Source: Fidelibacterota bacterium
GTDB lineage: Bacteria; Fidelibacterota; UBA2242
Assembly (NCBI GenBank): GCA_049975265.1
Contig: JBNGDF010000005.1
Coordinates: 129,640-163,126, forward strand
Length of the DNA stretch: 33,487 nt
Direction of reading: 5' to 3'
Below are positions 2,657 through 29,400 of this stretch, in pieces. The stretch's first letter is position 1, and each line of letters starts with the position of its first letter. The notes beneath the pieces were generated by a model. It worked only from the letters and a program-made list of their open reading frames with translations. It was not told where the DNA came from and ran no database searches. A program made the translations under genes and the position numbers.

Positions 2657-2680
2657 AAGATTCCATCAATACAGCACGTA

Positions 2681-2709
2681 AAAATAACATGAACTGTATG
2701 TAAAATCAA
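2681..2709 (-). promoter_or_regulatory. Putative sigma70 promoter for the diguanylate cyclase gene
   Basis: Minus strand reads TTGATT-17 nt-TATTTT with an extended -10 TGn, in the AT-rich 83-bp intergenic gap. Confidence 0.5.
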
Positions 2710-2739
2710 TAATAATTAGCGTGCCACTGAAGGGTTGTC

Positions 2740-3306: not shown

Positions 3307-3337
3307 AGAATCCTCACCTCAGGTATCAATTTTTTTC

Positions 3338-5747: not shown

Positions 5748-5911
5748 ATTGATCCGACCAATTACCTGTTCAATTTAGAGTTTTCCAGAAAATTTTCTGA
5801 GGTTTATTTTTTGACGATCGGTAGCAATTCGACTGGCAAATATACCTAAAAAATCGGAAATGCGGAAATAAATATTGCCGGATGGCACAAAATTGTGATG
5901 CTGATCAAGGG

Positions 5912-6595: not shown

Positions 6596-6624
6596 AGTGT
6601 GATCACGTGCGACGGTTAAATCTA

Positions 6625-9180: not shown

Positions 9181-11352
9181 ATGAATAAAACCTTGAAAAA
9201 CTTCACAGCTTGGCTGATTTTCCTGCTGGCATGCTCTGCGCTTCAGGCAGAGGATTACCGTCTGATTATCACCTATCCGCAGGCGACGAACGAGTGGGGT
9301 CGGCGTCTGGCTTCCGGTGAAAATAAGACGGTGATGAAAATCCAGTTTATTGATCTGGATGATGCAAACGACTACAAACTGAGCCAGTTCAGTGTGCGAC
9401 CTTTTACCGATCGGGAGGAGTGGTATATTGACTCGCTGCAGCTTTGGAAGAATGTAGATAATTATCCCGGTAGTCTGGACCACCGCAGCGATTCGCTGAT
9501 CGCCACTCAATCAATGATCGGGCTGGATGCCCTGACGACCAATATGACGGCGATGCCATTCACACTGGGCGGCGAACTGCCGCTGCAGGATACCACGACC
9601 TTCTTCGTAACCATGATCGCTCAAAACTGGTTTACCGATGCAGCGAATGACCGGGAGATTTCGGACCAAAACGGTGCCCAGATCGGCATTACCGTAGATA
9701 AAAACACCAATGATATCGTTATTTTACGGACCGATAACAGCAGCGGAACTGCCAATGACTGGGCGGGCAACGCGTCGAAAATATTTACGGTTCAGGCGGT
9801 CAATCTGCCGGTGTATATCTACAACCGTACCCGCACTGCCGAAGAGGACAGCAATCTGTTTTATCCCCGCTATCTGGAGCTGGATGATAGTAATGCCAGT
9901 CGGGCGCAAAGCCTGACCGATCTGACAGTCGCCGCCCATGTTTTTCTGCCGCACGATGGCAGCGTGAACGGGGACAGCCTCTCCTATGCCTCGTTTAAAA
10001 TCGGCTGGAGCAACCAGCATCTTCAGCTCGACTCCATTGCTTTCGGCGATCTCTGGGATAACAAGCAATACCAGGAGGACGGCTGGGACGGCAGTGGTTA
10101 CGGCGTGACAACGCTGCCCGGTGATACGACGGTCTCGGTGGTGCGATTCGAAGCCGTGGTCATGGGTAATTCCTCCAGCCCGGAAAATTATGTGGACATC
10201 GCCAATAATTCCCTGGGCGTTTTTTATTTTAAAGTATTGCAACCGGGGGTCAGCCCGCTGTTTTTGGACGATGTCCGGATACTGGATCAGTGGGGCATTC
10301 CTTATCACTGCTATCGTACATTACAGAATGATGCCGATGATACAGCTGAAAAATATGATGCCTGGGTCAAGATGATCCTCGGTGACTTTGCCGGCGGTTT
10401 AGGGACTCTCACCGACGGCGCCTGCGATGGTCGGATCGATCCGGTGCACGATGTCACCCTCTTTGCCGATTATTTCTGGATGAATGCCGACTCCGCCGAC
10501 TGGTACAGCCGTTTCGATATCGGTGATTCGATATCGCACAATCCCGATGAGCTGAGCCCCGACGACACCACCAACTTTTTTGACCTGATGGTGATCGGAA
10601 CAAACTATTATCGGACATTGCGGGGCGATTTCAGTCAAAAACCGGTGGCTTTTGCCGGTTCAGCGAAGGTACACCTGCAAATTTCTGAGAATGAAACCGC
10701 CCCGGACATTTTACAGATAAATCTTGAGATGGAGAAAATACCGGAGCTGGTTTCCGGACAGATCAAGTTATGCTTTGATCCGGAAGTCTACGCCTTCAAG
10801 GGATTCTCACTTGGAGATTGGGTCGCCGCGATGACACCGCAAAATGTATTTCTCTATGCGCCCGGCGAACTGAAAAAGGGGATCCTGGATATCAATTTTC
10901 TGGCGCTGGAAAAACCGGTTAGCGGTTCGGGCTGTTTTCTAAATGTCGATTTCGAAAAGATTGGTAGCGGGACAGACATGTTCCGGCTGGATCATGTTGA
11001 TCTGAGAGACCGCTATTGTCAGCAACTGGTGGTCAATATTGATGAACAAATCACGCCGGTCGTCCCAGCGGACTATTTTTTAACCGCCTGCTACCCGAAT
11101 CCTTTCAATCCGGTTGTGAACCTGAGCTATCAAATTCCCGTTATAAATGCCGGGATTTACCGTATTTCGGTTTTTGACCTGCAGGGCAAAATGATCCGCG
11201 AATTGTCCGCCGATTATCATGCGGCGGGACAGTATCACCTGGTCTGGGATGGTATGAACGGTCAGAAGATGCCGGTCAGCAGCGGTATCTATATTGTCCG
11301 GTTTGATGGTAACGGCGTCTCGAAAAACTATAAAATCACCCTCCTGCGGTAA
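9181..11352 (+). CDS. Secreted protein: N-terminal beta domain - cohesin-like - dockerin-like - cohesin-like - T9SS/FlgD-Ig CTD (paralog A)
   Basis: Signal peptide (ALQA|E). Cohesin-like patterns (FKVLQPGVSPLFLDDVRILD; IKLCFDPEV...GILDINF...SGSGCFLNVDF...LRD). Duplicated Ca-loop/helix (GDF...DGRIDPVHDVTLFADYF and FDI...PDDTTNFFDLMVIGTNY). CTD YPNPFNP...WDG.N...SSGIYIV...KITLLR. Confidence 0.78.
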   Translation: MNKTLKNFTAWLIFLLACSALQAEDYRLIITYPQATNEWGRRLASGENKTVMKIQFIDLDDANDYKLSQFSVRPFTDREEWYIDSLQLWKNVDNYPGSLDHRSDSLIATQSMIGLDALTTNMTAMPFTLGGELPLQDTTTFFVTMIAQNWFTDAANDREISDQNGAQIGITVDKNTNDIVILRTDNSSGTANDWAGNASKIFTVQAVNLPVYIYNRTRTAEEDSNLFYPRYLELDDSNASRAQSLTDLTVAAHVFLPHDGSVNGDSLSYASFKIGWSNQHLQLDSIAFGDLWDNKQYQEDGWDGSGYGVTTLPGDTTVSVVRFEAVVMGNSSSPENYVDIANNSLGVFYFKVLQPGVSPLFLDDVRILDQWGIPYHCYRTLQNDADDTAEKYDAWVKMILGDFAGGLGTLTDGACDGRIDPVHDVTLFADYFWMNADSADWYSRFDIGDSISHNPDELSPDDTTNFFDLMVIGTNYYRTLRGDFSQKPVAFAGSAKVHLQISENETAPDILQINLEMEKIPELVSGQIKLCFDPEVYAFKGFSLGDWVAAMTPQNVFLYAPGELKKGILDINFLALEKPVSGSGCFLNVDFEKIGSGTDMFRLDHVDLRDRYCQQLVVNIDEQITPVVPADYFLTACYPNPFNPVVNLSYQIPVINAGIYRISVFDLQGKMIRELSADYHAAGQYHLVWDGMNGQKMPVSSGIYIVRFDGNGVSKNYKITLLR

Positions 11353-11369
11353 AAGGGATATTTCGCCCG

Positions 11370-13565
11370 GTGAACTACATTAAAAAATATAGCCTCCTTT
11401 ATTGTCTGCTATTGCTGAGCTTTAGCCTGCCACTGCGGGCGCAGTATGGCTGGTATTTTCAGTATGCGGCGAACAATTTATCAACGCACTGGCGGCATCT
11501 GGCTTCCGGCGACACCACAGTGATTGCGAGTTTTACCTTTTCCACGGATATCCCGGACGATCCCACCGAATACTATTTAAAAGGTTTTCGTTTGTGGCCG
11601 ATCACCAATAGCACCACCGGCTGGTTTGTGGACGAACTGCAACTGTATCTGGATCGGGGTGACCGTGTTTTCGGGCGGGATGATTCGCTGATCAGCGGCA
11701 GGCTGGCGATTACGATTCCCGATCAGTCCGATAGCGTGAATTCGATCCATTTTAATTTCGGTGGGGATTCGTTACGTTTGAACGACAACTGCATGCTCTT
11801 TGTCATTGCGGTTGTTCACGACTGGCGGGATGCAGACCCGGAGAATCTGGAGATTGACACCACCACCAGCGGACCTTATGGAAAATGGTTCAGTATTAAA
11901 GTTTTCAAAGAGGATATAACCGTTTCGCCACCGGCTGTTTTCAATAGTATCAATCAACCCACGCTAGCCCAATTTTATTACCGGGCACTGAATCTGCCCG
12001 TTACAATCCGCAATAATCTGGCGTCCGCGGCGGAGGATGACAGCCCACGACGGAACATGTTTTATCCGAATTTCCACCCACTTGATGGAACAAATACCAG
12101 CAGAAGCCAGCGCCTTGACGATCTCTTCTTTTATGCTGACATTTACCTGCCGCTTGCCAATGACAGTATTCAGTTCAGTCTCAAGTCGGCTTCGCTGCGG
12201 TTTGGTTTCGATAACCGGATTTTGGAATTTGCCTCGGCAGAATATGGCGATATATGGGGAGATGACGCCTGGTTTTATGTGGATACGGCAATCACGGCCG
12301 TGGCAGATGCACAGGGTCTCGACACACTTTTTGAATATTCAATATTGCAGTATAACGCCGTTTTTTCCGGTAGCGAGACAGTGAACAGCAAATATGGTAT
12401 CATCGATTCGAACAGTGTCGTACGGCTGAAATTCAATGTCATCAGACCGGGAATTTCGCCGGTCTATTTGCGGGAAATCGATCTGCGCGACCGTTACGGG
12501 ATTCGCTATCATTGTTATCAGCAGTTACAGAACGGTGCGGCAGGAGAGAGTGGCGCGGTGACTGACCGTTTTGACGCCTGGGCGAAGTTCAATCTCGGAG
12601 ATTTTACCTATGCCGGTGGTGAGGAGGTGAGTACCGCCGGTACGGGCGACGGACGTGTGACCTGGGAGGATGTCAGCCTGTTTTCCGATTATATCTGGTT
12701 AAATTCCGGCAGCAGTCGCTGGTACAGGCGCTTTGATATCGCCTCCGCTCATTCGATATCGCCTGCGCAGTCCTGTCCGGATGATACGACTAATTTTTAC
12801 GATCTGATGGTACTCGGGACCAACTATCGCCGGACGTACCGGGGTGCGTTTAATCAAAAGCCGGTCAACCGCGAACCGGATAGCCTTGAAATAAGATTAA
12901 TCGGCGCGGATTTTTCTGACGAACGGCAAGTACGGATTCAGCTGCAAAATATCACCGATCTGCAATCAGCCCATCTGATCCTTCGGTTTAATCCTGAGGA
13001 GCTACGCTTTACCGACATTGAACAGGGCGCCTGGACGAGCAGCGTGATTGAGAATTGTCTGTTGCTGGTTCCCGAAAAGCCATTGGTAAAGGGGATTATT
13101 GATATCAATTTTGTATCTCTGGATCGGTCGCTCAACGGGGAGGGTGACTTTATTCAGGTTCGTTTCAGGAAATGTCAATCGCGGGCGGCAATGCCGGAAG
13201 TAGTTGCCTATGATTTTCGGGATAGTGATTGCCGTTCGCTGCCGGTGGTTCAAGCAGCTGCGCCCGAATCCGCGATTCCGGCGACCTTTACCCTGCTGCA
13301 GAATTTTCCCAATCCTTTTAATGCCGGGACGCAGATCACATACACTATTGCGGAAACGGAGGAGGGTTGTTACAATCTGGCTGTTTACGACCTTCGCGGA
13401 AACCGGGTTATTACACTGAGGGATGCTGTTCACTCCGCCGGTTCATACCGGCTCCGGTGGAACGGCTGCAACCGGCATGGTCAGGCGGTGGCGAGCGGGG
13501 TCTATTTTTTATGTCTGGAAAATTCTGAAAAGGCATGGCGGAAAAAGATAATGTTGCTGAGATAA
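11370..13565 (+). CDS. Secreted cohesin-dockerin-cohesin-CTD protein (paralog B)
   Basis: GTG start; signal peptide LRA|Q. Full-length similarity to paralog A (LASG, ALNLPV.I.N, FYP, PG.SP, PDDTTNF.DLMV.GTNY, KGI.DINF). CTD QNFPNPFN...WNG.N...ASGVYF...KKIMLLR. Confidence 0.78.
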   Translation: MNYIKKYSLLYCLLLLSFSLPLRAQYGWYFQYAANNLSTHWRHLASGDTTVIASFTFSTDIPDDPTEYYLKGFRLWPITNSTTGWFVDELQLYLDRGDRVFGRDDSLISGRLAITIPDQSDSVNSIHFNFGGDSLRLNDNCMLFVIAVVHDWRDADPENLEIDTTTSGPYGKWFSIKVFKEDITVSPPAVFNSINQPTLAQFYYRALNLPVTIRNNLASAAEDDSPRRNMFYPNFHPLDGTNTSRSQRLDDLFFYADIYLPLANDSIQFSLKSASLRFGFDNRILEFASAEYGDIWGDDAWFYVDTAITAVADAQGLDTLFEYSILQYNAVFSGSETVNSKYGIIDSNSVVRLKFNVIRPGISPVYLREIDLRDRYGIRYHCYQQLQNGAAGESGAVTDRFDAWAKFNLGDFTYAGGEEVSTAGTGDGRVTWEDVSLFSDYIWLNSGSSRWYRRFDIASAHSISPAQSCPDDTTNFYDLMVLGTNYRRTYRGAFNQKPVNREPDSLEIRLIGADFSDERQVRIQLQNITDLQSAHLILRFNPEELRFTDIEQGAWTSSVIENCLLLVPEKPLVKGIIDINFVSLDRSLNGEGDFIQVRFRKCQSRAAMPEVVAYDFRDSDCRSLPVVQAAAPESAIPATFTLLQNFPNPFNAGTQITYTIAETEEGCYNLAVYDLRGNRVITLRDAVHSAGSYRLRWNGCNRHGQAVASGVYFLCLENSEKAWRKKIMLLR

Positions 13566-13583: not shown

Positions 13584-14657
13584 ATGAGAAAGATTTGCAT
13601 CGGATTTTGGGTCAGTTTTTTCATCTGGACGACGTTGCCGGCGCTGACCACGCCCCGGGTGTCCATGCGGACAAGCAGCGATGAGATCAGTGTGACGGAC
13701 ACCTTTACAGTATCTCTGGGGGTGACGCGGGGCGATTCCATGCGGACGGTGTTTCTGCGCCTGAATTATGACGAGCAGAAGGTTCGCTACCTGGAGGGCA
13801 CACCGGGCAGTCTCTTCCAGGGAGCGGTATTCTGGGATATCCATCCCGAACGGATCGAGTCCGACAGCATGATCTATATGGTGGCGGTGATGCTGGGCGC
13901 CGGGCGTTTTGTTTCGGCGCCGGGGAACTTTTTCAATATTAATTTCGTGGCGCTGGACAGCGGTCAGGCGGTTTTCACCCTGGATTCGTTAAAATTCGTT
14001 GATCCCAACCTGAACTATTTCGACGGTAGCTGGGATACGCTGAAAACGGTGATCGCACCGACGGACACTTTCCCGCCGGGACCGGTTTCCGATTTTAAGG
14101 TTCAGGAAGACGGTTCGGGACGTTTGAAGCTGCACTGGCGCAATCCAAACGATGAGGATTTTGAGGGGACCATTATTCTGCGCAGTACCGAGAGTTTTAT
14201 CCGGATAGTAGATACAAGCAAAACGGTGGTATATGACGGGATCGGTGAAACATATACCGATATTAATCTGGTGGATGATGCCGTCTATTACTATACCGCC
14301 TTTGCGTATGATGAAATTCCCAACTATTCGGAGCCGCGGTTTCTCAAAGGGGTGCCCAAGGGCGAATATGTCTTCACCTATCCCAATCCCTTCGATCCCA
14401 ACGACGGAGTGGGGACGACCTTTAACATTCTGTTCACAAATAATACCTTTGTGGATATCACGATTTATGATGCCGTCGGTAACCACGTGATTGATTTGTA
14501 TAAAGCGGAACAGGTTTTTGCCAATGAACCCACCAAGACCATGACCTGGAACGGGCGCAACGGCGACAATGAGATGGTGGCGAACGGGGTGTACTATTTT
14601 GTGGTCAAGACCAGTCAAGGAGATCAAAAAATTGGAAAAGTTGCGGTTCTCAGGTAG
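13584..14657 (+). CDS. Secreted cohesin-like - FN3 - CTD protein
   Basis: Signal peptide. Cohesin-like domain (DTFTVSL...LRLNYDEQKVRY...G.LF...INFVALDSG.AVFTLD). FN3-like domain (DTFPPGPV...LHWRNPND.DF...YYYTAFAYD...NYS). CTD YPNPFDPN...WNGRN...VANGVYYF...GKVAVLR. Confidence 0.78.
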   Translation: MRKICIGFWVSFFIWTTLPALTTPRVSMRTSSDEISVTDTFTVSLGVTRGDSMRTVFLRLNYDEQKVRYLEGTPGSLFQGAVFWDIHPERIESDSMIYMVAVMLGAGRFVSAPGNFFNINFVALDSGQAVFTLDSLKFVDPNLNYFDGSWDTLKTVIAPTDTFPPGPVSDFKVQEDGSGRLKLHWRNPNDEDFEGTIILRSTESFIRIVDTSKTVVYDGIGETYTDINLVDDAVYYYTAFAYDEIPNYSEPRFLKGVPKGEYVFTYPNPFDPNDGVGTTFNILFTNNTFVDITIYDAVGNHVIDLYKAEQVFANEPTKTMTWNGRNGDNEMVANGVYYFVVKTSQGDQKIGKVAVLR

Positions 14658-15798
14658 GCGTTTGACGCTGAACCATGTTCTGTTGTTGATTGTTCTGATG
14701 ACGGTCGGAATTTCGGCGCAGAGCGGCGGCTACGCCGGTAGTTATCTCAGTCTGACTAGCAGCTCCCGAGCCTTTGGCATGGGTGGTGTGGCGATCGCCT
14801 CCGCCGAGGATGCCACGACGGTTTTTATCAATCCCGGGATGGTCGGCATGCTTTACGACGGGAATTTCAATGCCACTCTGGCGAAACTGGGCTATGACCG
14901 GAATTATTACGATATGGCGTTTACCTATCCGCTGAACTCCTGGGGTAGTCTTGGTTTAGCCTGGGCGCAGCTGTCCGTTGACAATATCGAAGGGCGCGAC
15001 CGGGATGGATATTTCACGCAGAACTTTTCCGATCTGCAGAGCGCCCTGATGCTGGCATACAGTAAGACGATCGGCGATAATTTTTCGGTGGGTTTCACGG
15101 GGAAATACCTGTATCACAGCTTGGCAGGCTATTCCGCCAACGGGGTGTCTTTCGATATCGGTTCGGCGATTTACATCGGCGAGCGCATCACCCTCGGGGC
15201 GGTTTTCCGGAATCTGAACTCTTCTCTGAAATGGAACACATCCAGTCAATTGAAGGAGACTATTCCGACCCAAATCGGGGTCGGGATCAGCTATTTTGAT
15301 CTGTTCAATGTGCCGAATTTACTGGTGGCGACGGATTTGTATATGCAGGGCGGCGATTTTTCCGGCTATCATGCCGGGGCTGAATATATCATCCGGGATC
15401 TGGTGCTGCTGCGGGGCGGTTATTCGGACCGGGGCATCAGCTACGGCGGCGGATTGCAGGTCGCCGGTTTCCGGTTTGATGTGGGCGTGATACCCGAAAC
15501 GTTTGGAAACGTCTCGCGGGTATTTTTTACCTTAAGCTGGCGCTTTGGAAAGCAGCCGGAAGCTATTTATGAGCCTCCCGTACAGGAAACTCCGCCACCC
15601 GTACAGCAGACGGCGCCCCCACCGGTGAGTACCGAGACAAGAAATATCGTTTTAATTACCGCCGGTCCGCTGGCAAATGAAAGAGCCGAGGTGATCAGCC
15701 AGAATCCGGCTGAGAATACGATTACCGTGCGCCTGCTGGCATTGCCGGGTTCCGATCCGATTACATTGACTATGGATCAGGTGAAATTTTTGGAGTAA
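14632..15798 (+). CDS. PorV/PorQ-family (FadL-like) outer-membrane beta-barrel with Pro-rich linker and C-terminal KOW-like domain
   Basis: Start re-assigned to TTG 14632 (AAGGAG 9 nt upstream), giving signal peptide ...VGISA|Q. PorV-type motif SRAFGMGG..A...DA...FINPG. Amphipathic strands (FSVGFTGKY, SFDIG, LRGGY) end at FTLSWRFG. Confidence 0.82.
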   Translation: MEKLRFSGRRLTLNHVLLLIVLMTVGISAQSGGYAGSYLSLTSSSRAFGMGGVAIASAEDATTVFINPGMVGMLYDGNFNATLAKLGYDRNYYDMAFTYPLNSWGSLGLAWAQLSVDNIEGRDRDGYFTQNFSDLQSALMLAYSKTIGDNFSVGFTGKYLYHSLAGYSANGVSFDIGSAIYIGERITLGAVFRNLNSSLKWNTSSQLKETIPTQIGVGISYFDLFNVPNLLVATDLYMQGGDFSGYHAGAEYIIRDLVLLRGGYSDRGISYGGGLQVAGFRFDVGVIPETFGNVSRVFFTLSWRFGKQPEAIYEPPVQETPPPVQQTAPPPVSTETRNIVLITAGPLANERAEVISQNPAENTITVRLLALPGSDPITLTMDQVKFLE

Positions 15799-15813: not shown

Positions 15814-17346
15814 ATGGAAATAAAATTGAATGTACCGATCCTTGCGTGGACAGCCTTTTTGCTGCTCTACCTGTGTGCATCGCCGGTGCAAGCCCAGCGG
15901 CGGCGCCCAGTGACGACCAGCGCCGGGACTCAAACAGTGCGAAGTCCCGCTATGGACGTGGATCAGATCGAGCAGCGTAATCAAGCCCTTTTACAGCAGA
16001 TTATGAGTTTACAAAAGGAACGGGATTTTTATAAAAAGAAAATCACCGACTGGACAGAGTTGCAGAAGAATAAGGCTCCGGAACAGCCGAAGCCAGAAAA
16101 AGAGGAAACGAAGCCGGAGGGAGCAATCCAACCGGGCGCTCTGGCGGCTTACTATCTGCCGATTACACCCGGTATTCTGGATACCTTGATTCAGTACCGA
16201 GATCTGTATCGCCGTTCCAGAAAACCGGAACCGGTGGTCCTGGATAAGGATTCGCTGTTTCAGACGGCGCAACGTCTGGCGGTCATGGGGCGGTATCACG
16301 CAGCCCGGGAGGGTTACGAGCAGCTGATTCGTTCTCCTCAGGCAAAGGATACCCATTTTCTGGAATATGGTAAATTTCTCTACAAAATCGCTGATTATCA
16401 ACGGGCACTGGAGATGCTTTCGGGGGTGACCGGCGGTAATCGGGAGCTGGCAGAAGCCTCATATTATAAAGGGCGTATCTATCAGCTGACCCATGCGCCG
16501 ACGGTGGCGCAGATAGATTTTTACCGCAGCCGCTACCTCCAGCCGGAATTTCCGGGTGTTGAGACTGCCAGAGGATTTCAATTTTTTCTTGAGGGTGAAT
16601 TGGATTCCGCCCGCACTGTGTTTACCCGTCTTCTGCAGAAACAGTCGGTCTTGAGCGGGGAGATTTATTACGGTCTGGCACGGGTCTATGAAGCCCAGAA
16701 TGAGCGTGAGAAAGCCGTGACCTGTTATCAGCGCAGCCTTGTTCACGATCCCCTGTTTGTTAATAGTTATGTGGCACTGGCGAAAATTCTGTACGAGCTG
16801 GAAGATTATCAATCGTGCATCCTGTTTTTCCAAAAGGCAGCGGAGGCTGCTATTGATCAGCAGATGCGGTATTATTATACAGGGCGTTCATATTATTTTT
16901 TAAAGCAATGGGACAAAGCCCTGGCGGAATTTCAAAAAATAGACGACAGCGCCGAAGGATTACATATAAAAAAAGAGTGGCTTGCCAAAATTTACTATAT
17001 CCGCTGCCTGATGGCGCGGGAGACGGGCGATCACCGGCAGGCGCTGGATTATTTCCGCAAAGCCCGGGAGATCAACCCCGACGCTTACAGCTGGATGACG
17101 GCAGCACTGGAGGATCTGGGTCGTATTCATACCAAAGATTTGGATTACAACGACGCATTGAGTTACTATTCCCGGCTTGTCAGGCTGAATCCGGCGGACA
17201 TGGAGACGTTGCTGAAAGTCGGACAATTCTATTATTATTTGGGAGAAATTGACGAAGCTCGCCGATATTTTACCCTTGCTTTGAACGATACGGAGACCGC
17301 CGATCGGGCGGGTTACTGGCTGCGACAGATCAATGCGATTCCATGA
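15814..17346 (+). CDS. Exported TPR-repeat protein with N-terminal coiled coil
   Basis: Signal peptide VQA|Q; coiled coil IEQRNQALLQQIMSLQKERD; many TPRs (IYYGLARVYEAQNEREKAVTCYQRSL, YYLGEIDEARRYF). Confidence 0.85.
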   Translation: MEIKLNVPILAWTAFLLLYLCASPVQAQRRRPVTTSAGTQTVRSPAMDVDQIEQRNQALLQQIMSLQKERDFYKKKITDWTELQKNKAPEQPKPEKEETKPEGAIQPGALAAYYLPITPGILDTLIQYRDLYRRSRKPEPVVLDKDSLFQTAQRLAVMGRYHAAREGYEQLIRSPQAKDTHFLEYGKFLYKIADYQRALEMLSGVTGGNRELAEASYYKGRIYQLTHAPTVAQIDFYRSRYLQPEFPGVETARGFQFFLEGELDSARTVFTRLLQKQSVLSGEIYYGLARVYEAQNEREKAVTCYQRSLVHDPLFVNSYVALAKILYELEDYQSCILFFQKAAEAAIDQQMRYYYTGRSYYFLKQWDKALAEFQKIDDSAEGLHIKKEWLAKIYYIRCLMARETGDHRQALDYFRKAREINPDAYSWMTAALEDLGRIHTKDLDYNDALSYYSRLVRLNPADMETLLKVGQFYYYLGEIDEARRYFTLALNDTETADRAGYWLRQINAIP

Positions 17347-17478: not shown

Positions 17479-20400
17479 ATGCGGCGTCCAGCTTTTATCG
17501 TCATTTTTCTATCGCTTTTGGGCGGTTATTCAAACGCCTTAGCGAATACGGCGCCCTACTTTACCGGGGAGGTGGCTGATACCAATTTGACCGAAGATGT
17601 TTACTGGAGCACCTGGTTGATGGCTGCCGACGATGACGAGGATCCGCTTAGTTATAATTTTGCCAATGATGTCCCCGCCGGGATGACGATCAATACCACT
17701 TCAGGGCGGATTACCTGGACGCCGGATAATGATGCGGTTGGGACGCACCGGATTCTGGCTTCCGTGTCGGACGGTAGCCTGACCGCTTATCTGGAGTTTT
17801 TTCTGCACGTTCAGAATGTCAATGATCCGCCATTCTGGGTCAATACAACCGACGATACGGTCACTGTGGCGGAGGACAGCGAGCTGGAATTGACGGTGAC
17901 GGCGAACGATGACGATTTACCCCACGGCGATCATATTACCTACTCCATCATCCGGGGTGATAATGTCAACATTAATCCCGTCACCGGAAGGATCAGCGGA
18001 TCACCGGACAATAGCAATGTGGGCTTTCAGACGATTACAGTCAGAGCCCGGGATGACAGCACCGCCGCGATTGAGTGGTCCTTTGTACTGGAGGTTTTGA
18101 ATACGCCGGTGGTGTTTACAAACATGCCGCCGATAGCAATTAATGAGGATGATCCCTTCGGATTTGACCTGAACGCCGATGACGAGGGACAGGGCAACAC
18201 GGTTTACTATTTTCAGAGCGGCTTTCAACCGGAATGGATGGGAATTGACGCTACCACCGGTTATATCAGCGGTATTCCGAACAATCTACATGTCGGAACC
18301 GAGACGGTGAAAATTGTTGTTGACGATGATAACGGCTCCACCGATACGCTCTCCTATGAGCTGACCGTTATTAATCGCAAGCCGGTGATTACCAGCCCGA
18401 CGCTGCACTACGCTACCGAGGATGTTCATTTTGCTCTGGATATCCATGCCGACGATGAAGGATTGGGAACCACCACTTATCAGTTTTTAGATGATTTAGA
18501 ACCACATCCCGATTGGCTGAGTCTCCGAACAAATGACGGCGTGATTTCCGGGACGCCTAATAATACCCATGTGGGAACGAATTCTTTCTATCTGGAATTC
18601 CATGACGGTCATGATGGAAAGGATACCACTCAATTTGTGATCAATGTAGCCAACGTTCCGGTGGTGATTGACAGTACCAATCTGATCTATGCCATTTCAG
18701 AGGATCAGGAGTACTACTATAAATTTACCTCCAGTGACGATGGTCAGGGAACGGTAACCTATCACGGTATCAACCTGCCCGACTGGCTGGCGATCAATCT
18801 TTATTCCGGAGTTTTGCGGGGCACTCCGAACAATGAGGATGTAGGCGATTATAATCTCTCAATTTATGTGTCAGACGGGACAGATAGCGACACAGTGGAT
18901 TTTACGATTCATGTGGAAAACCGGCTTCCCCAGCTGGAATCTTCCCCGGTGGCGAGTGTTGAAGAAGATAATCCCTATACTTACGACATTGATTATGATG
19001 ATGAAGGCGAAGGCGCGGTTTACAGATGGTTAATCCAGCCAGCCTGGTTGAGTCTGAATCCTTCAACCGGCGTAATCTCAGGAACACCGGACAATAGTGA
19101 TGTAGGCGAGCACGTGATTTCGGTACAGGTTGATGACGGGAATAGCGGAATCGTCAGTCACACCTTTACCGTCACGGTTATTAACCGTAATCCGGTATTT
19201 ACACCGCAGGCGGATACCACAGTGACCCAGTATGAATTACTGACCATTGATCTGGATACCGATGATGAAGGCGATCCCCAGGTCACCTATGAAATTCTGG
19301 AAGCACCGGAGGGGGCAGAAATATCGCCAAACGACGGAATTTTCAGCTGGACGCCGGCAAACGCCCAGGTGGGAACCCATGCGATCAGGATTTCCGGGAC
19401 GGATAATCACGGTGGCGCGAGCACCTTTGATTTTTCTGTGACGGTGTTGAACTCGATTCCGGTCATCAGTTCGTCTCCACCGCTGACCGCAACGGAGGAT
19501 GCTAATTACTATTACGATGTTCAGTGTAATGAAGAGGGCGACGGCGATGTCAGTTATTCGCTGACCACGGCACCCGACTGGCTGAGTATTGACGCCGATG
19601 CCGGAATCCTGCAGGGCGTCCCCGGTAATCCAGAGGTAGGCGCTCATCTGGTAACAGTGCGCGTAAACGACGGCAACGGCGGCTTCACCACTCAGTCATG
19701 GACGATTACGGTGCAGAACATTAATCCCTCCATTGTGACCGAGGTTCTCGATCCGGCAACAGAGGATTCGGCGTACAGTTTTCAGATAGACTACATTCCC
19801 GCCAACCAGGGTGACCACACATTTTCGATTGTCGGTGATAAGCCGGGCTGGCTAAGTATTAATGCTTTGAACGGACGTCTCTCGGGCACGCCCACCAACT
19901 CAGAGGTGGGGTCGGACTCCATTATGGTAAAGATTGCCGATGATTATGGTGGTTACGATCAGAAGCGTTTGGAAATCGTGGTCAATAACAGCCTGCCGCT
20001 CTTTACGACAACCGACGATGTTACGATCACGGAAGACGAGGCGCTCAGCTGGGATATTGATACGAACGATGAGGGCGACGAAGGCTCCGGCACCAGCGGG
20101 TACAATCTGGTGGAAGCACCGGATTGGCTGTCCATTAATGCCACCACCGGCGAACTGACCGGAACGCCGGTTGACGATGATGTCGGGGCAGAATCTTTGA
20201 CTATTCGTTATCAGGATGGTAATGGTGGGATCGTGACGCTTAATCTAAATCTCATCGTTGTCAATAATCCGCCCACGATTACGAGCCTCAGTCCCACCGC
20301 CACCGCCATCGAAGGTGTTAATTATTCTTTTCAATTTACATCCGACGATGACAATTGGAATCCCACATACACTTCAGCAGGCGAGCTGCCTGCGAATATT

Positions 20401-23400
20401 AACCTGACAACCGACGGGCTGCTGAGCGGAATTCCCCTGAACGCCGTCGTGGGTAATCATGCCATCAATATTATCGTCACGGATAATAACGGCGAGCAGG
20501 ACAATCTGGGATTTACCCTCTCGGTTGCAAATGCCGCGCCCACGATCACCGGATATACCGTTTCCAACCCCAAGTCAACCGTGGTGGACACGGTTTACAT
20601 CACTGAGGACATTGCTTATACAATTGATTTTTCCGCCGATGATGAAGCCGACGGCGCGGCAGCGCTTTACACAATCAACCATAAACCCGGCTGGCTGACG
20701 ACGACCAGTACGGTAAACGGAACGCTTGCCGGCACGCCGGACAATCGTCATGTGGGACTGGATTATGTGGATGTTACCTTTAATGACGGCAACGGCGGCA
20801 GCGATAATATGCGCTTTTATCTCCGGGTTCAGAATGTGGCGCCCGCTTTTATTGATGCACCCGCCAGTCTGACCGCTACTGAAGACGCAGAATTTTATTA
20901 CGATCTGAATTCTTCCGACGAAGGACAGGGTACGATCACCTATTCCATCACAGCCGGCGATCTGGGCTGGTTAACCCTGGACGCCACATCCGGTGAGATC
21001 AGTGGAACACCCGACAATGACGACGTTGCCGACGGTACCGATGTAACTTTCCGGGTGACCGACGGCAACGGCGGCGCGGCGACAAAGACCATCGTGTTTA
21101 TTGTTGGAAATACCAATGACAACCCGACCTGGATATCCGCCCCGGTAGCGGGTTCAACGGTTACAACCGCCGAAGATGCTGGGTATAGTCTGGATATTGA
21201 TGCCGGCGATGTGGATGTGGATGATAATCTCACCTACAGCTTGACGACCAATCCAACTGGTATGACGATTAATAGTACAACCGGTGTAATTAACTGGACA
21301 CCGGATAATAGCCAGGTAGGCGATCACCCGGTCACCGTCAGAGTCGAAGACGAAAACTCTGCCGCAATCACCCGGTCCTGGACCGTGCGGGTGACGAATA
21401 TAGTCTCACCGATCACACACCCGGCGACTGATGATTTTACCCCTTCAATTGCAGTGACGGCTGTTGCCGATACCTTCTATTTAATCGAAGATACGACTTA
21501 TACTCTCGATCTGTCGGCGCCGGATGAAGGTGTCGGCGCAGTAAGCAGCTACAGCTTCGATGAATTTCCCAATCCGGGCTGGATAACATTATCAAACGCT
21601 GTAACCGGACTGGTGTCGCTTACGCCGACCAATAGTGCCGTGGGACTTGACTCTTTTCTGGTATATTTCAAAGATCAACCGGCTTCCCGGGATACGATTA
21701 CAATTTATTTGAGTGTCGAGAATATTGCCCCGGAGATTCTCACGGAGGGTCCCTTTTCCGCCACGGAAGGTATCGCATTTTCCCGGCAGTTGCAAAGCAG
21801 CGACGATGGGGACGGCACGCTGACCTGGAGTTTTGTAAGCGGCAAACCGGGCTGGCTGGAAATTGATGCCAACAGCGGAGAACTGAGCGGTACGCCGCAA
21901 AACGCCGACGTCATCAGCGATGCCAGTTTTATAGTTCAGGTCAATGACGGCAACGGCGGCGTGACGCAAAAATCCTTCGATTACAGTGTGGAAAATGTCA
22001 ATACGCCTCCTTCGATCACTGTTGTTCCCGGGGGAATTATCACGATTACGGAAGACGTCCTTTATACAACCGACGTGGATGCCTCCGACGCCGATGCCGG
22101 CGATGTCCTGAGTTACTCGCTTAATACGGCACCAACGGGGATGACGATCAATGCGACCACGGGGGTAATCCAGTGGACGCCGACCAATGCTCAGGTGGGC
22201 ACACACACCGTCACCGTGAAGGTGACAGACAGTGAAAGTGAATTTGCCAGCTCCTCCTGGCAACTGCAGGTACAAAACATGAACGATCCGCCCGAATGGG
22301 TTTCGGTACCCAGCGGTACGATTCAAACCGACGAGGAAGCCTTGTACAGCGTTACCCTGCAGGCGGAAGATATTGATTCCGGGGATCATCTGACCTATTC
22401 ACTTTTGGCAAATCCGGATGGAATGACCATAGATGCCAATACAGGGCTGATTGAGTGGACCCCTGATAATGATGATGTCGGCTTACATGATATTTCTGTG
22501 CGGGCTGTTGATGATTCCGCGGCAGCCATTACCGCCGGCTGGACGCTCGAGGTGCGCAATGTCAATGATACGCCGGTCTGGACTTCGGTTCCAACCGGGA
22601 CCATCACGAGTCCGGAAGATGCCCTTTATACAACCGATGTGGATGCAATAGATGCCGACGCCGGCGATGTGATTACCTACAGCCTGACCCAGAGTCCCCT
22701 GGGAATGACCATCAACGCCACTATCGGTGTGATCAGCTGGACACCCGACAACTCTCAGGTGGGTAATCACAGCATTACGATCAGGGCGACCGATCTGGCG
22801 GGCGCTTTTGTCTCACAAACCTTTACCCTGCAGGTGACGAACGTGGCGTCACCAATCGCTGCACCGGTGGCGGGCGACTTTACACCCTCTGCTGCGGTGA
22901 CAGTGGCGGCGGATACTTTTTTTATCAAAGAAGATACGGTTTACACACTGAATCTGACGGTACCTGATGAGGGTGTCGGTACTGCGAGCAGCTACAGCTT
23001 TGACGATTTTCCCAATCCGGATTGGGTCTCGCTGGCTGATGCCGCCAGCGGACTCGTCACCCTGACACCCACCAACGGCAGTGTCGGGCTGGATTCCTTT
23101 TTGGTCTATTTCCGGGATCAACCCGGTTCCCGGGATACGCTGACGGTCTATTTGCGCGTTGAGAATGTCGCGCCGGAGATTCTCACGGAGGGTCCCTTTA
23201 CCGCCACAGAAGGTGTGGAGTTTTCGCAACAATTGCAGAGCAGCGACGATGGCGACGGCACACTGACCTGGAGTTTTGTAAGCGGCAAACCGGGCTGGCT
23301 GGAAATTGATGCAAACAGAGGAGAATTGAGCGGTACGCCGGAAAATGCCGATGTCATCAGCGACGCCAGTTTTGTAATCAGGGTAGACGACGGCAACGGC

Positions 23401-26400
23401 GGCAGCGCCCAAAAAACCTTCGATTACAGCGTGATTAATATCAACAACAGCCCGGTCTGGACCGCGGTGCCGGAGGGAGTTGTCACCGTCAATGAAGACA
23501 ACCTCTATTCGGTTACGATTGCCGCCGACGATTCAGACCTGGATCACGGTGATATGATCAGCTATTCGCTGGTAAATCCGCCGGCAGGGATGATTATTAA
23601 TTCCGCTAGCGGTGTGATTACCTGGATACCGGACAATAGCCATGTGGGAGCGAATTCTGTCACCGTCAAAGCTACCGATCTGGAAAGTGCCGTTATTTCG
23701 GCTAATTTTACGGTTAACGTATTCAATTCGCCGCCGGTGATTGCCGCACCGGGTACAGGCGATTTTGCACCTGCGGGCGTCGTTACGGCGACCGCCGATA
23801 CATTTTTTATCTGGGAAGACTCCAGCTATACGGTGGATTTTACAGCCGATGACGAGGGGCTGGGCGGCGCCACCGTTTACCGGATCAGCGGTCTGGCAAA
23901 TCCCGACTGGGTGTCGCTGACAAACGCTACCGCCGGAGTTGCGCAACTGACCCCGCTCAATAGGGACGTCGGGTTGGATTCTATTCGGATAGTTTTTGAT
24001 GACGGTTACGCCACCGATACCGCACAGGTTTACATCCGGATTCGCAACAGCGCTCCGGAAATAATTACTGCCGGACCTTTTTATGCGACTCAGGACGAGC
24101 CCTTTGAAGCGGAGCTGGAAAGCACCGACGCGGATGAATTGTGCAGATATTCTTTTGTCGGTATCTATCCCGACTGGATGTCAATCAATGCTTCCAGCGG
24201 TCTGATTAGCGGCATACCGGACAACGATGCCGTGGGAACATTCCTGTTCACCGTGCGGATTGACGATGGCAATGGCGGCAGCGCCGATCAGAGCTACACG
24301 ATCCACGTAGCCAATACCAACGACCCTCCGGCTATCACCTCAGTACCTATTACAACCGTCATCGAAGATGAGTCATACGTTTATCATCTCAGCGCAATAG
24401 ACCCGGACGGCGATCCGCTGACCTATTACCTGATTACTAAGCCCGCAGGGATGACAATTGACGCCGGCAGCGGCATGATTCGCTGGATACCTGATAATAA
24501 TTTCAGCGGCTTGCTGATACCGGTCAAAGCCGGTGTGGCAGATACATCGGGTGCTGCGGTCGAGCAGAGCTGGAATATCAGTGTTGCCAATGCGCCACCC
24601 AATTTTTTAACCGCCTTTGCCTCCTTTGATGCCATTGAAGATTCTGAATTCAGTTTCGATCTGGATGTTGACGACGAAGGACAAGGTGTAACCAGTTATA
24701 TGGTCATTCATCTGCCGGGCTGGATGACATTGCTCAATTCGGTAACCGGCTTGATCGGCGGCACACCGGATAACAGTTACGTCAACAGCAGCGATTCGGT
24801 TTATGTGGAATTTTCCGATGGCAACGGCGGCAGGGACACCCTGAATTTACCGGTAACCGTCGCCAATGTCGCACCGGTTTTTAGCGCGCAGCCGGACACC
24901 AGTGTCACGGAGGGCAGTTCGGTTTTGATCAATCTGGATTGTGACGATGAATTTGCCGGCGGCGTCAGTTATACCGCTCCGGGCGGTCTGCCCGCCTGGC
25001 TGAGCCTGAACGCCACCAGCGGTGTATTAAGCGGTTCACCGGGCAATGCTGCCATTGGAGCTTACAATATATCAATCCGTGCGACTGATGCATCTGGCGG
25101 TTTTACCGCGATTTCTTTTCAGATTACCGTGGTAAATGGACCGCCGGAATTTACCGGGGTACCTCTGACCGCGATTGAAGAAGACAGTCTTTACGAATAT
25201 ACACCGGATTTGGTTGATCCGTCGGGAGATAATATATTCAGCCTGCTGACAAATCCCGGTTGGCTGACAATCAATGGCAGCACCGGCATGCTGAGCGGGA
25301 CGCCTTTGAATCAGCATGTCGGTGACAATACGGTCTCCATGAAGGTGGATGACGGTCTGAGTGCCTCAGATACCCTGGATTTCGTCATTACCGTCGTAAA
25401 CACGGCGCCGGTTATTACCACCGTTCCGCCAACTGCCGGTACCGAAGATTTACTCTACTCAGTGAACATCAATTGCTCCGACGAGGGTCAGGGAACAATG
25501 ATCTATACCGCCCTGCAAAAACCCGGCTGGCTGAGCCTGAATCCGAATACCGGGCTGCTGCGAGGCACTCCTATGAATCAGCATGTCTCGAGCGGTGACA
25601 GCATCGAAATCATGGTCAACGACGGTAACGGTGGATTCGACACCCTGCGATACTCTCTGGCGATTGCAAACCGGGGACCGAGTTTTACCCAAATATTTAG
25701 CGATACGACAATTACAGAAGACGATATGTTCTCTTTCGATATTGACAGCGACGATGAGGGTCAGGGAGCGACGAGTTACAGCTTTATAAACGAGGTGCCG
25801 GACTGGATTAATCTGGATACCGAAACCGGGTTGCTGTCGGGAACGCCCTTGAACCAGCACGTTGCCAGCTCGGTCGGGATGAATGTAAAAGTTGATGACG
25901 GCAACGGCGGCAGTCGCTCACAAATATTTACCATTACCGTACTCAATAATCCGGTGCGGTTTATCTCCGCGATCACCGACAGCATTGCGACACAGGGCGA
26001 GCTGTTCAGCTACGATGCCGACACCGATGACGAAGCCCAGGGCAACGGCGTTTATACGTTCGTAGGTCTGCCCGCCTGGCTGAACGGTGACGATACCACC
26101 GGTGTACTCGGCGGGACACCGGGCAACGATGACGTGGATACCTCGGCGATTACCATCCGATTCAACGATGGCAATGGTTCCATTGTCGAGCAAATGATAC
26201 ATGTCATTGTTGAAAACGCTAATGATGCACCCTGGCTGACGGCGACAGCGACGCAGGATACGATTTACGAGGACAGCCTTTGGACATTTCGTTTTTTTGC
26301 CCAGGACATTGATTCGGTATATGGAGACATGCTGAGTTTCGAGTTGCAGGCTTTTCCGTCTGCCATGGAGATTGACAGCGCCAGCGGCATCGTGAGCTGG

Positions 26401-29400
26401 ACGCCGCAGAACGACGCTGTGGGCGACGTCAGCTTTGAAATCTGGGTATTTGACAAAGCCCGGGCGTCGGATTCGCTGACCTTCCGGCTGCACATTCTCA
26501 ATACCAACGATCCACCGCAGATCATTGCCCAGGCGGATACAATTGCCCGGGAGGATGAACTTTTCAGTTATACAATCCGCTATGTAGATATGGATGCCGG
26601 TGATTCCCTCCGGTTTGAACTGCATTCATCACCACTCCTGATGGAGATCGATTCAATCAATGGTAGAATCACCTGGACACCGGACAACAATGACCGAGAG
26701 CAGAGCTTTGAGATCATCTACAGCGTCACAGATAGCAGCGGCGAGACCGATTTGGACACGTTTAATGTATTTGTGGAAAATGTCAACGACGCACCGGTTC
26801 TTGCGGTTCTGGATGAGTATACGTTTTCGGAGGATAGTTCCCTGATCATTCAAATATCCGACTGGTTTGACCGGGTAACGGATATAGATGATCCCGATTC
26901 GGCTCTGAGCTGGCAGGTGACTTCATTCAATACTGTTGTGGCGGTTGTCCGTGATGACTCACTTCTTCTGACGGCGCCGCAGGACTGGTTCGGACTGGAT
27001 ACCGGTGAAGTTGTGGTTTCCGACGGCGAATTGAGCGATACAACCCAACTGATTGTTTTTGTCCTGCCAGTCAATGATCCACCGGTGATTGCGGCGGAAT
27101 TTCCGGCGCTGATCACTTTTGACGAGGATGATTCCACGATACTCAACCTGAACGATTACGTCTCCGATGTGGATAACAGTGACCTGGAATTGAATTGGTC
27201 GGTCGAAATGGTGGAGGCTGAAAAGAGTACCGGTAATGAGGCATTGTCAAAATCCGAATCGGCTAAGAAAATTCCGCCAATAAAATCGTATTCGGTGAGT
27301 GCCAGGCGGTCGCTGCTGGTTAATTCCAACGGGGACAGCATCAGCATTGACATTGATCCGGAGACAAATCTTGCCAAATTCTACGCCCAGCCTAATTTTT
27401 TCATTGATGGTTTTGGTTTCCGGTTTATTGTGAATGACAGTACCGATGGTGCGGATTTCGGCTGCGACAGCGTTATCACGACAATCCGGGTGGAAGCCGT
27501 CAACGATGCGCCGGTTTTGGCGACATTACCGGAGCTGAATGCCGTTGAGGACTCGACGATTACGGTTGTACTTTCCGACTGGTTCGAATTTGTCAGCGAT
27601 GTGGATAATCCCGATACGACTCTGATCTGGACTATCATTGACGGGAATTACGTATCCGGTGTGATTGTTGATTCAATCCTCTCGATAATACCTTTGGAAA
27701 ACTGGTTCGGGAAGGATACCTTGCAGATAATTGCCTCCGATGATGAACTGCTGTCTGATACGGCAGATGTGATTGTGCATTATCAGCCGGTCAATGATGC
27801 ACCGGTCTTCAGCCCGATTCCCGCTATCTCCTTCCCTGAAGATGACACCTTTTATGTACACCTGAATGATTACGCCGCTGACGTGGAGACGCCTGACGAT
27901 GATCTGGTTTTCGGTTTTTTCCGGGTAGAAAATACCGGATCCGCGAGCACTTCTTTGAAATACCGGCGAGCTAAACCCGCAGTGGAATTCACCGGAATAA
28001 AGTCCCAAACCACCAGAGCAGTGTTCTATGATACTTTTAGTTCGTCGGACAGCATTATCATCGAGATTCATCCCGCGACGCATATTGCCACTATATCGGG
28101 CGCGCCGAATTACTACACGCCTACCCGTCCGTTCGGATTTACCGTTTCCGACGGTGAAGCCGCCGATACAGTGACGGTCATGATCGCCATCCAACCAGTC
28201 AATGACAAACCGGTTCTGGATTCACTGCCGCCGATTGTCTTTGTAGAGGACAACGTTTTCAGATTATCACTCTCAGAATGGGATTCGCTGATCTATGATG
28301 TAGAAGACCCGAACGATTCGCTGCGCTGGGTTTTCAGTACGCAGGGACCGGTTACAGTCCAGTACGATTCGTTGCTTCGTCAAATAACCCTTTCGGCACC
28401 GGAGAATTTTTACGGTTCGGACGTTTTGACGGCGGTTGTCAGCGACCGGGGCGGACTTTCTGATACCATGACGATCGCGATGACCGTCCTGCCCTTTAAC
28501 GATCCGCCGCAGATTGATTCCAGCCTGTTTGCCATTACCTTCGATCAGAAAGACACGGTGGAATACCAACTCGATATTTTCGTCAGCGACCGTGATCACG
28601 ACGTCCGATCCATGCAGTGGCGGTTCCATGCCGGCGAGTTTGTCTGTTTCGACTATACGGACACTTCCCGGTGGGTCAGATTCTGGACCGATCCTGACCG
28701 TTTCGGCATAGATTCTCTTCTGGCGATTGTCACCGATCCCCTGGGCGGCGCCGACAGCCAGTATCTGAAAATTACCGTCACGGATACGACCGAGCCGACC
28801 TTTGAATTGGCGATTTTCCAGAATCAGTTAGCCAGCCGCTTTGTGGAAATTGATGTCTTTCCGTCGGAATTGCTAGCTGACCGGGTACTGATAATCACGG
28901 ATGGAGATACCCTTCCGGTTTTGCAGGACCTGGATGCGGACAGTGTCATGTATTACAACGCCACTTACCAGATCGAGAAGACCGGAATCGTTCAGATCCG
29001 GGTTGAAGGCATTGACCGGGCTGGCAATCCGGGCGATTATGCCTATCAGATCGGCGTGTCCCGAATCAGCCGGGAGACCGGCGGGTCTCTGACCGGTCCC
29101 GACAGCATTATGTCCTTTCTGTTCGCGGCGGAGGCGGTGCCCATGGACCTCTGTGCCCTGTTTATTCCCTATAAAGCCGCCATCCGACCGGATACGGCGC
29201 TCGCCAAGGGCATGTTTGGCGATGCTGACTTTCCCGTTTCCGATGAGTTTGATTTCCGGATTCCCGTCGCCAGCCTTGCGGATAATGCGCGGATCATGTT
29301 TAATCTGGAGAATATGCAATTTCTGCAGCAGTACGCCGCATATCTGGGTGTTTACCGGCTGGAGAACGGAGAGTGGCGGTACCTGAAGACCTATACAAGC

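Follow-up and report, generated by a model that had tools for sequence, protein, structure and literature searches.

The window, a 33,487-nucleotide stretch of a Fidelibacterota genome whose relatives are labelled Marinimicrobia, carries two tandem open reading frames on the + strand that encode paralogs A (9181..11352, 723 aa) and B (11370..13565, 731 aa; start codon GTG in the ORF list). They share 34% identity over 706 aa (E 3e-120), and B was assigned by its homology to A and a C-terminal domain (CTD) over the TIGR04183 cut-off. Behind signal peptides judged by eye only (aa 1-23 in A), both proteins have the order CBM93-like N-domain, cohesin (Coh1), dockerin, cohesin (Coh2) and type IX secretion (T9SS) CTD. 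In A these lie at 9250..9795 (aa 24-205), 9796..10377, 10378..10614, 10666..11040 and 11074..11349, and in B at 11442-11984, 11985-12593, 12594-12833, 12888-13253 and 13287-13562, all on the + strand. The cohesin-dockerin-cohesin-CTD order had been claimed for both paralogs in the original prediction, and it was confirmed by the ORFs, an AlphaFold2 model of A, and fold and profile matches, with the borders in A moving from residues 247-370, 401-480 and 507-610 to 206-399, 400-478 and 496-620. The monomer model of A shows the N-domain, a beta-sandwich, a helical insert, a second beta-sandwich and the CTD in this order; in a model from a shallow alignment the dockerin had pLDDT <50 and was left unmodelled.

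Both beta-sandwiches of A have the cohesin fold. The predicted model of Coh2 matched 3kcp_A (Z 15.2, rmsd 2.2, 123 aligned) and that of Coh1 matched 5n5p_C (Z 11.4, rmsd 2.5, 128 aligned), and the nine-stranded jelly roll of cohesins is found in A by predicted models and in B by homology. The Pfam Cohesin profile is weak alone (E 0.008, below the cut-off, for A; no match for B), and matches 39 of the 49 family members. Coh1 and Coh2 are not equivalent modules. The 8-3-6-5 face of a cohesin is where type II dockerins bind (PMC5141474), and on this face Coh2 of A has S525, on strand 3 by our own strand assignment of the model, with Q527, D570, N572 and R609. These Coh2 residues are kept in the 47 A- and B-type rows of the alignment (D570 in 47, N572 in 45, R609 in 43), and the face co-varies with the dockerin. 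The face of Coh1, a domain with conserved inserts, has diverged: position 525 is Tyr in all 32 A-type rows and the Arg609 position holds Leu or Ile, in a comparison where the register of strand 6 is uncertain, while Coh1 of B has S525 in 12 of 15 rows and R609 in 10 of 15. Conservation among orthologues is lowest of all domains in Coh2 (37% in A, 29% in B), against 61% and 47% in Coh1. Coh1 abuts the dockerin without a linker. In A and B it is likely to be a rigid pedestal for the dockerin, placed like the X-module of clostridial type II dockerins, and not an equivalent acceptor.

The dockerin is type II-like, with Asp or Asn at loop positions 1, 5, 9 and 12 of both loop-helix repeats (D402/D416/D420/D424 and D446/D461/N465/D468 in A). 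Six of these residues (D402, D416, D424, D446, D461, D468) are invariant in the family alignment and N465 and D420 are mostly retained, suggesting that the module binds Ca. Each Ca loop is atypical in holding ∼10-12 extra residues, an insert that replaces the position-3 ligand. A profile of this middle domain matched the solved dockerins 2y3n_B (E 1.4e-6), 4u3s_B (7e-5) and 4wi0_B (9e-5); Dockerin_1 (PF00404) did not reach its cut-off, matching 3 of 49 family members with a best E of 0.024, and a Dockerin_1 search of the genome did not recover A and B. The domain upstream of the dockerin is a cohesin fold here, not the X-module of type II dockerins, and is Fn3-like (a label given by eye) in 101 of the 109 relatives with enough upstream sequence. 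The recognition site of the second repeat is near-fixed (F466 in 134 of 135 tails), and that of the first repeat varies, being paralog-specific, with Trp-Glu in 11-12 of the 15 B rows and variable residues in A. In a model from a deep alignment the dockerin reached pLDDT 81-91 and the linker behind it 72-90, with pTM 0.61, a value that by our own arithmetic would fit a rigid unit of two domains, although that unit could be Coh2-CTD. Fold searches with the tail model gave cohesin and CTD rows, including the CTD folds of PorU and PorZ, and no dockerin chain among the matches listed.

A is the first of six genes in a block whose order is preserved in 7 of 7 relatives read. Behind B lies protein C (13584..14657, + strand, 357 aa), with a cohesin (CohC; Cohesin E 9e-7), an Fn3-like domain recognized by eye, and a CTD. 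It is followed on the same strand by a PorV/PorQ-family outer-membrane barrel (14569..15798; NF033709 106 bits, cut-off 90), whose true start is probably ∼30 codons downstream, a conserved TPR protein of 510 aa (15814..17346) and a giant protein (17479..29811, 4110 aa) in which He_PIG/Big_9/cadherin-like Ig domains are repeated in tandem and which also has a CTD. Profiles found neither a dockerin nor a cohesin in the giant protein, and motif and profile searches found no dockerin in it, the TPR protein or the barrel. A/B and CohC occur in an identical set of genomes, 14 of the 29 in the family. CohC lacks D570 and R609. The CTD of A is of T9SS type A and has an ordinary cargo-type ending (TIGR04183 28.3 bits, cut-off 23); the CTDs of B and C also pass this cut-off, and the ending in C resembles those of PorU and other barrel-adjacent CTDs. 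Such PorU-like endings neighbour 9 of 19 barrels and occur in 10 of 88 CTD proteins, and by this likeness C is a candidate barrel-held adaptor.

The genome encodes SprA and PorU, along with 15 barrels that pass the PorV-family cut-off and 91 matches to the CTD, and A and B are likely to be T9SS-exported surface proteins. In this genome, 95% complete, two proteins have a canonical dockerin and a single cohesin passes the Pfam cut-off; no multi-cohesin scaffoldin, which together with many dockerin-bearing enzymes marks a cellulosome-type system, was found in it. That C or Coh1 has its own partners among the canonical dockerins encoded elsewhere is not favoured: these occur in 12 of 14 operon-bearing and in 11 of 15 other family genomes. 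None was found in two of the operon-bearing ones, which are 87% and 93% complete.

A search with the dockerin alone returned 524 matches, and the best 120 of the 524, 109 of them new to the analysis, were examined. A profile derived from these 120 places a cohesin directly behind the dockerin in 119 of them, and an independent one made solely from A/B does so in 107; the median distance to the C-terminus is 233 aa, and the linker from dockerin to Coh2 spans 15-37 aa (median 20). Dockerin, Coh2 and CTD thus form a fixed tail that is reused on many unrelated passenger proteins. Across 135 tails, M470 of dockerin helix 3 and S525 of Coh2 strand 3 rank second among co-varying pairs (z 15.4; next inter-domain pair z 5.5), in a size-compensating pattern (V-A 41, M-G 25, I-G 25). 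In a tree test with 12 independent pairs, 8.4 agreed in direction and 0.3 ran the other way, for a median p of 0.008. Among the pairings listed, not one of the 35 dockerin columns used as controls equalled the signal, and with the A/B rows removed the pair still ranked 4 (z 9.9). The states track the protein and not the genome: of the 23 that could be read among 24 copies in four genomes, 18 have the M-G pair and the other 5 combine Ala with I, V or A, and both states co-occur in two of the four genomes. In three of these copies the pair is I-A, which the tree test's coding counts as discordant. A and B also show compensated states at the level of the clade, G473 with N572 and T474 with Q527, where other tails have A-A and I-S. 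Within the 49 A/B rows alone, which are underpowered (Neff 32), the best of three face pairs ranked 362 of 81,810 and the tree tests were not significant. An upstream cohesin with the full face is present in 42 of 85 distant tails (G/A525 in 40, S527 in 37, D570 in 40, R609 in 41), and none is detectable at that place in the other 43. Its 525 state agrees with the dockerin of the same chain in 30 of 40 rows; for the downstream cohesin the figure is 40 of 41. A hint that helix 1 of the dockerin is coupled to the upstream cohesin, with 34 of 40 concordant, did not survive the tree test.

We give a probability of about 0.5 to the reading that A and B are exported with the dockerin clasped in cis by the Coh2 of its own chain. 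The dockerin would be held through its second helix pair, and A and B would be monomers or small defined complexes rather than branched polymers. They may be parts of a surface adhesion apparatus that would also include C with its PorV-like barrel, the TPR protein and the 4110-aa Ig-repeat protein. Intramolecular docking had been offered in the original prediction as an alternative, and it fits best, the dockerin co-evolving with the downstream face and being nearly always followed by it; the co-evolution reads the same for cis and for homotypic trans binding. A pure cis clasp leaves Coh1 of A, Coh1 of B and CohC without partners, and the weak co-variation within A/B, the low conservation of Coh2 and the full-face upstream cohesins of distant tails also count against it.

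Cohesins and dockerins are familiar as modules that connect separate chains. We hold only tentatively that the cohesin-(Fn3)-dockerin-cohesin-CTD arrangement is a latent T9SS assembly tail across several uncultured diderm phyla, which would travel plugged and whose released dockerin would swap outside to a neighbour's upstream cohesin or to a barrel-held cohesin adaptor, giving scaffoldin-free surface chains. If so, enzymes, lectins and adhesins would be strung into surface chains, with A, B and C a minimal three-part version that lends itself to in vitro reconstitution. An unlikely proposal for the locus itself is one in which Coh2 would cap the dockerin in export and the dockerin would then swap, possibly via its first-repeat site, to the other paralog's Coh1 or to CohC on the PorV-like barrel, forming an anchored C-A-B chain. 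The shared genome set of CohC and A/B, the preserved gene order, the PorU-like ending of C, the paralog difference in the first-repeat site, the two operon-bearing genomes in which no other dockerin was found and the full face on the 42 distant upstream cohesins are consistent with it, as are the type II dockerins of C. thermocellum, described as having two sites with different cohesin specificity (PMC5141474). However, one surface serves both dockerin helices, so the tethered partner must be displaced, CohC and Coh1 of A (Tyr525) lack face residues, and the coupling of the upstream cohesin is not significant on the tree.

Docking of the dockerin on Coh2 of another copy, yielding swapped dimers or linear head-to-tail chains, would produce the same co-evolution and protein-specific pairing, and the dockerins of Amy4 (PMC4611034) and ScaH (PMC5301203) recognise their own cohesins. 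We judge it rather unlikely for A and B, since the linker of at least 15 aa, ordered in the monomer model, makes cis closure look reachable and favoured by tethering. It is very unlikely that A and B lack cohesin-dockerin binding altogether and use modules inherited with the tail as Ca-stiffened spacers; the weak A/B co-variation, low Coh2 conservation and sub-threshold Pfam scores would suit this, but the Coh2 face kept in the 47 rows and the clade-level compensated states speak against it. Most improbable is the proposal of two equivalent acceptors in trans, giving branched homo- or heteropolymers of A and B, which found little support: the 2:1 architecture is real and recurs, with the same face on both cohesins in 42 of 85 distant Fn3-type tails and S525 and R609 mostly kept in Coh1 of B, but the face of Coh1 in A has diverged, the dockerin is tuned to Coh2 with no linker to Coh1, and the upstream cohesin, undetected in 43 of 85 distant tails, is optional there. 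Polymers as such keep some probability because co-evolution is blind to cis versus homotypic trans and those 42 relatives keep a full upstream face.

Self-recognising cohesin-dockerin proteins are already known and offer an analogy. In Ruminococcus bromii Amy4, for which multimerisation was proposed (PMC4611034), and R. flavefaciens ScaH (PMC5301203), matching modules also sit on one chain; unlike these Gram-positive cases, A and B have a diderm host, a T9SS tail and a dockerin between two cohesin folds, with the likely partner following after ∼20 aa and the evidence tilted towards cis capping. The best dockerin sequence matches are to type II cohesin-X-dockerin complexes (2y3n, 4u3s, 5k39, 2b59), which likewise have a directly fused upstream beta-sandwich and show helix-3-dominated binding (PMC5141474), but here both Ca loops carry inserts, a single gene encodes the dockerin together with its likely partner cohesin, and the place of the X-module is taken by a cohesin fold (by an Fn3-like domain in relatives). 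The inferred cellulosome-like system of Ca. Stygibacter (Cloacimonadota; PMC8542988) also combines cohesins, dockerins and CTDs in a diderm candidate phylum, but with a 3,755-aa tandem-cohesin scaffoldin and dockerin-bearing enzymes, unlike the genome studied here with its two other dockerin proteins. In Chlorobium chlorochromatii, the adjacent genes Cag_2037/Cag_2038 encode Ig-repeat surface proteins predicted to join through a single cohesin on one chain and a single dockerin on the other, with type I secretion (bioRxiv 10.64898/2026.03.19.712371), whereas our giant protein shows neither module. PorV-family barrels hold surface proteins in the T9SS pairs PorU-PorV and PorZ-PorQ (PMC8545088), and C similarly precedes such a barrel directly, but the candidate adaptor carries a cohesin in place of a sortase or LPS-binding domain. 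Four further papers (PMC13487519, PMC12484212, PMC9705933, PMC9012536) served as background only. Our literature search found no paper joining dockerin, cohesin and Marinimicrobia, nothing relevant for Eisenbacteria, Krumholzibacteria, Latescibacteria or Zixibacteria, and nothing on T9SS/PorV in Marinimicrobia; among titles and abstracts no cis-capped tail was found, and Peer et al. 2009 or S4 Data of PMC9012536 may hold similar architectures.

A dockerin that co-evolves with the cohesin lying 20 residues behind it on one chain points to a use other than linking chains, as a closed clasp or stored plug. The tail that carries it occurs on secreted proteins, hundreds of them, from Marinimicrobia, Eisenbacteria and Krumholzibacteria, and such metagenome genes should not be taken as cellulosome-like by default. 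Exchange of partners, if it occurs, would let Gram-negative bacteria build surface chains without a scaffoldin. The operon is a small test set for these ideas, with five cohesins, two dockerins and one specific predicted contact (470-525).

The N-domain of A is a predicted beta-sandwich that matched 7qy9_A (Z 10.9, rmsd 3.0, 141 aligned, 12% identity; model 3-182, chain 34-197) and several sialidase chains (Z 10.7-11.5), in searches with the 700-aa model and not with the domain folded alone. Residues 34-196 of the matched sialidase are named CBM93 (PMC9472817). The CBM93 profile PF14873 matched nothing in the genome, even with E allowed up to 10, and a homology search with the N-domain returned the A family alone, 28 proteins. 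From the model we predict a CBM93-like glycan-binding head, as in Bacteroidota sialidases; although it stands at 12% identity, unmatched by PF14873 and apart from any sialidase domain, its predicted fold resembles the N-terminal CBM93 module of Tannerella forsythia NanH.

Paralogs A (9181-11352, an ORF of 723 aa) and B (11370-13565, 731 aa) lie in tandem and are 34% identical over their full length, and their homologues carry the source name 'Candidatus Marinimicrobia/Neomarinimicrobiota'. Signal peptides were assigned to both by eye, and mature A, modeled with AlphaFold2 (mean pLDDT 77, pTM 0.54), showed five parts. The predicted fold of the N-domain is similar to the N-terminal module of Bacteroidota sialidases (7qy9_A, Z 10.9, 12% identity), which has been named CBM93 (PMC9472817); the PF14873 profile gave no match to the A/B N-domain. 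By fold comparison of the A model, the cohesin downstream of the dockerin (Coh2) matched solved cohesins with Z 15.2 (rmsd 2.2, 123 aligned), and the upstream one (Coh1) with Z 11.4 (rmsd 2.5, 128 aligned). The segment between them contains two Asp-rich loop-helix repeats, each loop carrying an insert of ~10-12 residues, and the top matches of a 12-row dockerin profile were solved type II dockerins (2y3n_B, E 1.4e-6). A T9SS type A CTD was found at the C-terminus of both proteins. The original prediction, which placed a dockerin-like domain between two cohesin-like domains in each protein, had the architecture and coordinates right.

The unit formed by dockerin, Coh2 and CTD (the tail) is a reused cassette. 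Among distant matches to the A core (44 representatives), unrelated passengers carried the same insert-dockerin, cohesin and CTD. A dockerin-only search returned 524 proteins, and in the best 120 of these, on which the tail counts rest and whose source names included Eisenbacteria, Krumholzibacteriia and Gemmatimonadales, a cohesin-like domain directly followed the dockerin in 119, the same cohesin was found in 107 using a profile made from A/B only, and a median of 233 aa more extended to the C-terminus. The dockerin-Coh2 linker measured 15-37 aa (median 20). One Fn3-like domain, labeled by eye, preceded the dockerin in 101 of the 109 proteins with enough sequence, and a cohesin stood ahead of this domain in 42 of 85 distant tails. 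One genome (G304, loci L042-L062) held 16 tail copies; in another (G303, contig C60), three copies fell within 8 kb.

When mean-field co-evolution was computed over 135 tails (Neff 104), M470 in dockerin helix 3 and S525 in Coh2 strand 3 ranked second of all pairs (z 15.4), with the next inter-domain pair at z 5.5 and G473-N572 at rank 56. Residue states at 470 and 525 compensate in size. On a tree of 109 rows made without those columns, which underwent 16 and 17 changes, 12 independent pairs gave 8.4 in the same direction vs 0.3 in the opposite (median p 0.008); the strongest of 35 control columns, 399, gave ~5 vs 0-1. In Fn3-type relatives alone the equivalent pair ranked fourth. Four genomes supplied 23 readable copies, 18 of them M-G and five Ala with I, V or A, and both kinds occurred side by side in two of the four; three of these rows, I-A, run against the pattern as coded for the tree test. 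Strands 8-3-6-5 are described as the cohesin face bound by type II dockerins (PMC5141474), and the Coh2 face is kept in A- and B-type domains (D570 in 47/47, N572 in 45/47, R609 in 43/47). The top co-evolving pair was columns 413 and 444 (A numbering, tail alignment A5), Cys-Cys in 32/135 tails, likely a disulfide closing the first dockerin insert.

With the tail alignment, AlphaFold2 folded the dockerin (pLDDT 81-91; linker 72-90), the Coh2-CTD junction being the inner part of lowest confidence (60). By arithmetic on the score, the pTM of 0.61 would fit two domains moving together.

The most likely reading, to which we give a probability of about 0.5, is that the A/B dockerin closes on Coh2 of its own chain, propped by Coh1, with the CBM93-like head displayed. 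The proteins would leave the cell through the T9SS, and the dockerin would fold with Ca and shut onto its own Coh2, leaving the head at the surface, where it and the giant Ig-repeat protein encoded downstream would belong to one adhesion apparatus. Coh1 joins the dockerin without a linker, and its conserved inserts and PGISP loop presumably lie at the dockerin end, judged from cohesin topology, as expected if Coh1 is a pedestal.

Downstream of A and B lies the gene for C, which carries a cohesin, an Fn3-like domain and a CTD; next come a barrel of the PorV/PorQ family, a TPR protein and an Ig-repeat protein of 4110 aa that has a CTD. A search of 301 genomes of the phylum found the A/B core in 16, of which 14 are among the 29 genomes of the source's own family, and at least two matches were found in 12 of the 15 other positive genomes; the cohesin of C was found in the same 14/29. 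Gene order was kept in all seven relatives (of the 15 genomes) whose longer regions were read, one having a single A/B gene. A B orthologue in two frames (G105, L005:3051-4246) reflects a frameshift or assembly error. SprA and PorU are encoded in the source genome (95% complete), which also has 15 barrels of the PorV family above cut-off and 91 matches to the CTD. The ending of C resembles those of PorU and of proteins preceding 9 of 19 examined barrels; such PorU-like endings occur in 10 of the 88 CTD proteins that a profile built for this analysis detected and are absent from A, B and the giant protein. By analogy with the attachment pairs PorU-PorV and PorZ-PorQ (PMC8545088), C may stay attached to its barrel. 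Because 9/19 PorV-family barrels lie directly 3' of a gene with a G[KR][FVI] CTD-like ending (contigs C3, C5, C15, C18, C25, C47 and C2), the genome may hold many dedicated cargo-barrel pairs.

We consider it unlikely that the dockerin exchanges onto Coh1 or barrel-held C. In the 42 distant tails that have one, the upstream cohesin retains nearly all of the downstream signature. This spare acceptor speaks most strongly for a trans arrangement, although the upstream cohesin matched its own dockerin in 30/40 vs 40/41 for the downstream one. Against equivalent acceptors, the Coh1 face of A has Tyr at 525 in 32/32 rows and Leu/Ile at 609, unlike Coh2; that of B has Ser at 525 in 12/15 and Arg at 609 in 10/15, with the strand 6 alignment of Coh1 unreliable. 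The cohesin of C has yet another face, unlike both. Docking on Coh2 of another copy, giving swapped dimers or linear chains, is similarly doubtful; the co-evolution fits it and closure on the own chain alike and does not separate them. That the A/B dockerin and cohesins do not bind is quite improbable, although two observations count against closure: in the 49 A/B rows alone the best of three face pairs ranked 362 of 81,810, with tree tests non-significant, and Coh2 is the domain conserved least. The original prediction had offered branched polymers or intramolecular docking on the neighboring cohesin; the 470-525 co-variation favors the latter, and the diverged Coh1 face makes the former very improbable.

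The locus works like modules described elsewhere: R. bromii Amy4, whose dockerin recognizes its own cohesin with multimerization proposed (PMC4611034), ScaH, with the same self-recognition (PMC5301203), the cohesin-dockerin proteins with CTD proposed in Ca. Stygibacter (PMC8542988), and the ANME archaeal multi-cohesin proteins with one dockerin (PMC9012536). The locus is not of the cellulosome type. A literature search, with most subscription papers outside its coverage, returned no paper on an insert-dockerin tail or a cis-capped pair.

Only two further canonical dockerin proteins were found in the source genome, and the presence of such dockerins does not follow that of the operon. Their genes are adjacent (contig C16, 43783-50819): the first, a peptidase-like ORF of 560 aa, has a terminal dockerin and no CTD; the second, gingipain-like and 1521 aa long, combines a dockerin with a short beta domain and a CTD. 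We take them to belong to peptidase families M14 and C25, respectively. They add a second tail type, dockerin-X-CTD.

Upstream of the operon, on the opposite strand, 902-3916 encodes an ECF sigma factor, an anti-sigma factor and a GAF-GGDEF cyclase, a set adjoining the operon in only one of seven relatives (G041), several regions ending short upstream. The 245-aa product of a plus-strand ORF (5882-6619) had no Pfam or NCBIfam match; an opposite-strand ORF of 227 aa overlaps this one. The giant protein (17479-29811) is conserved at ~3,900-4,100 aa in relatives whose copy was complete, and basic inserts of low complexity are present in two of its late repeats. By eye, its last ~350 residues resemble the tail of a divergent 562-aa CTD protein (7251-8939), a resemblance that presumably includes a ZU5-like stretch. 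An IS481-like transposase (below cut-off) at 32212-33369 lies in a stretch of 39% GC, vs ~50% elsewhere.
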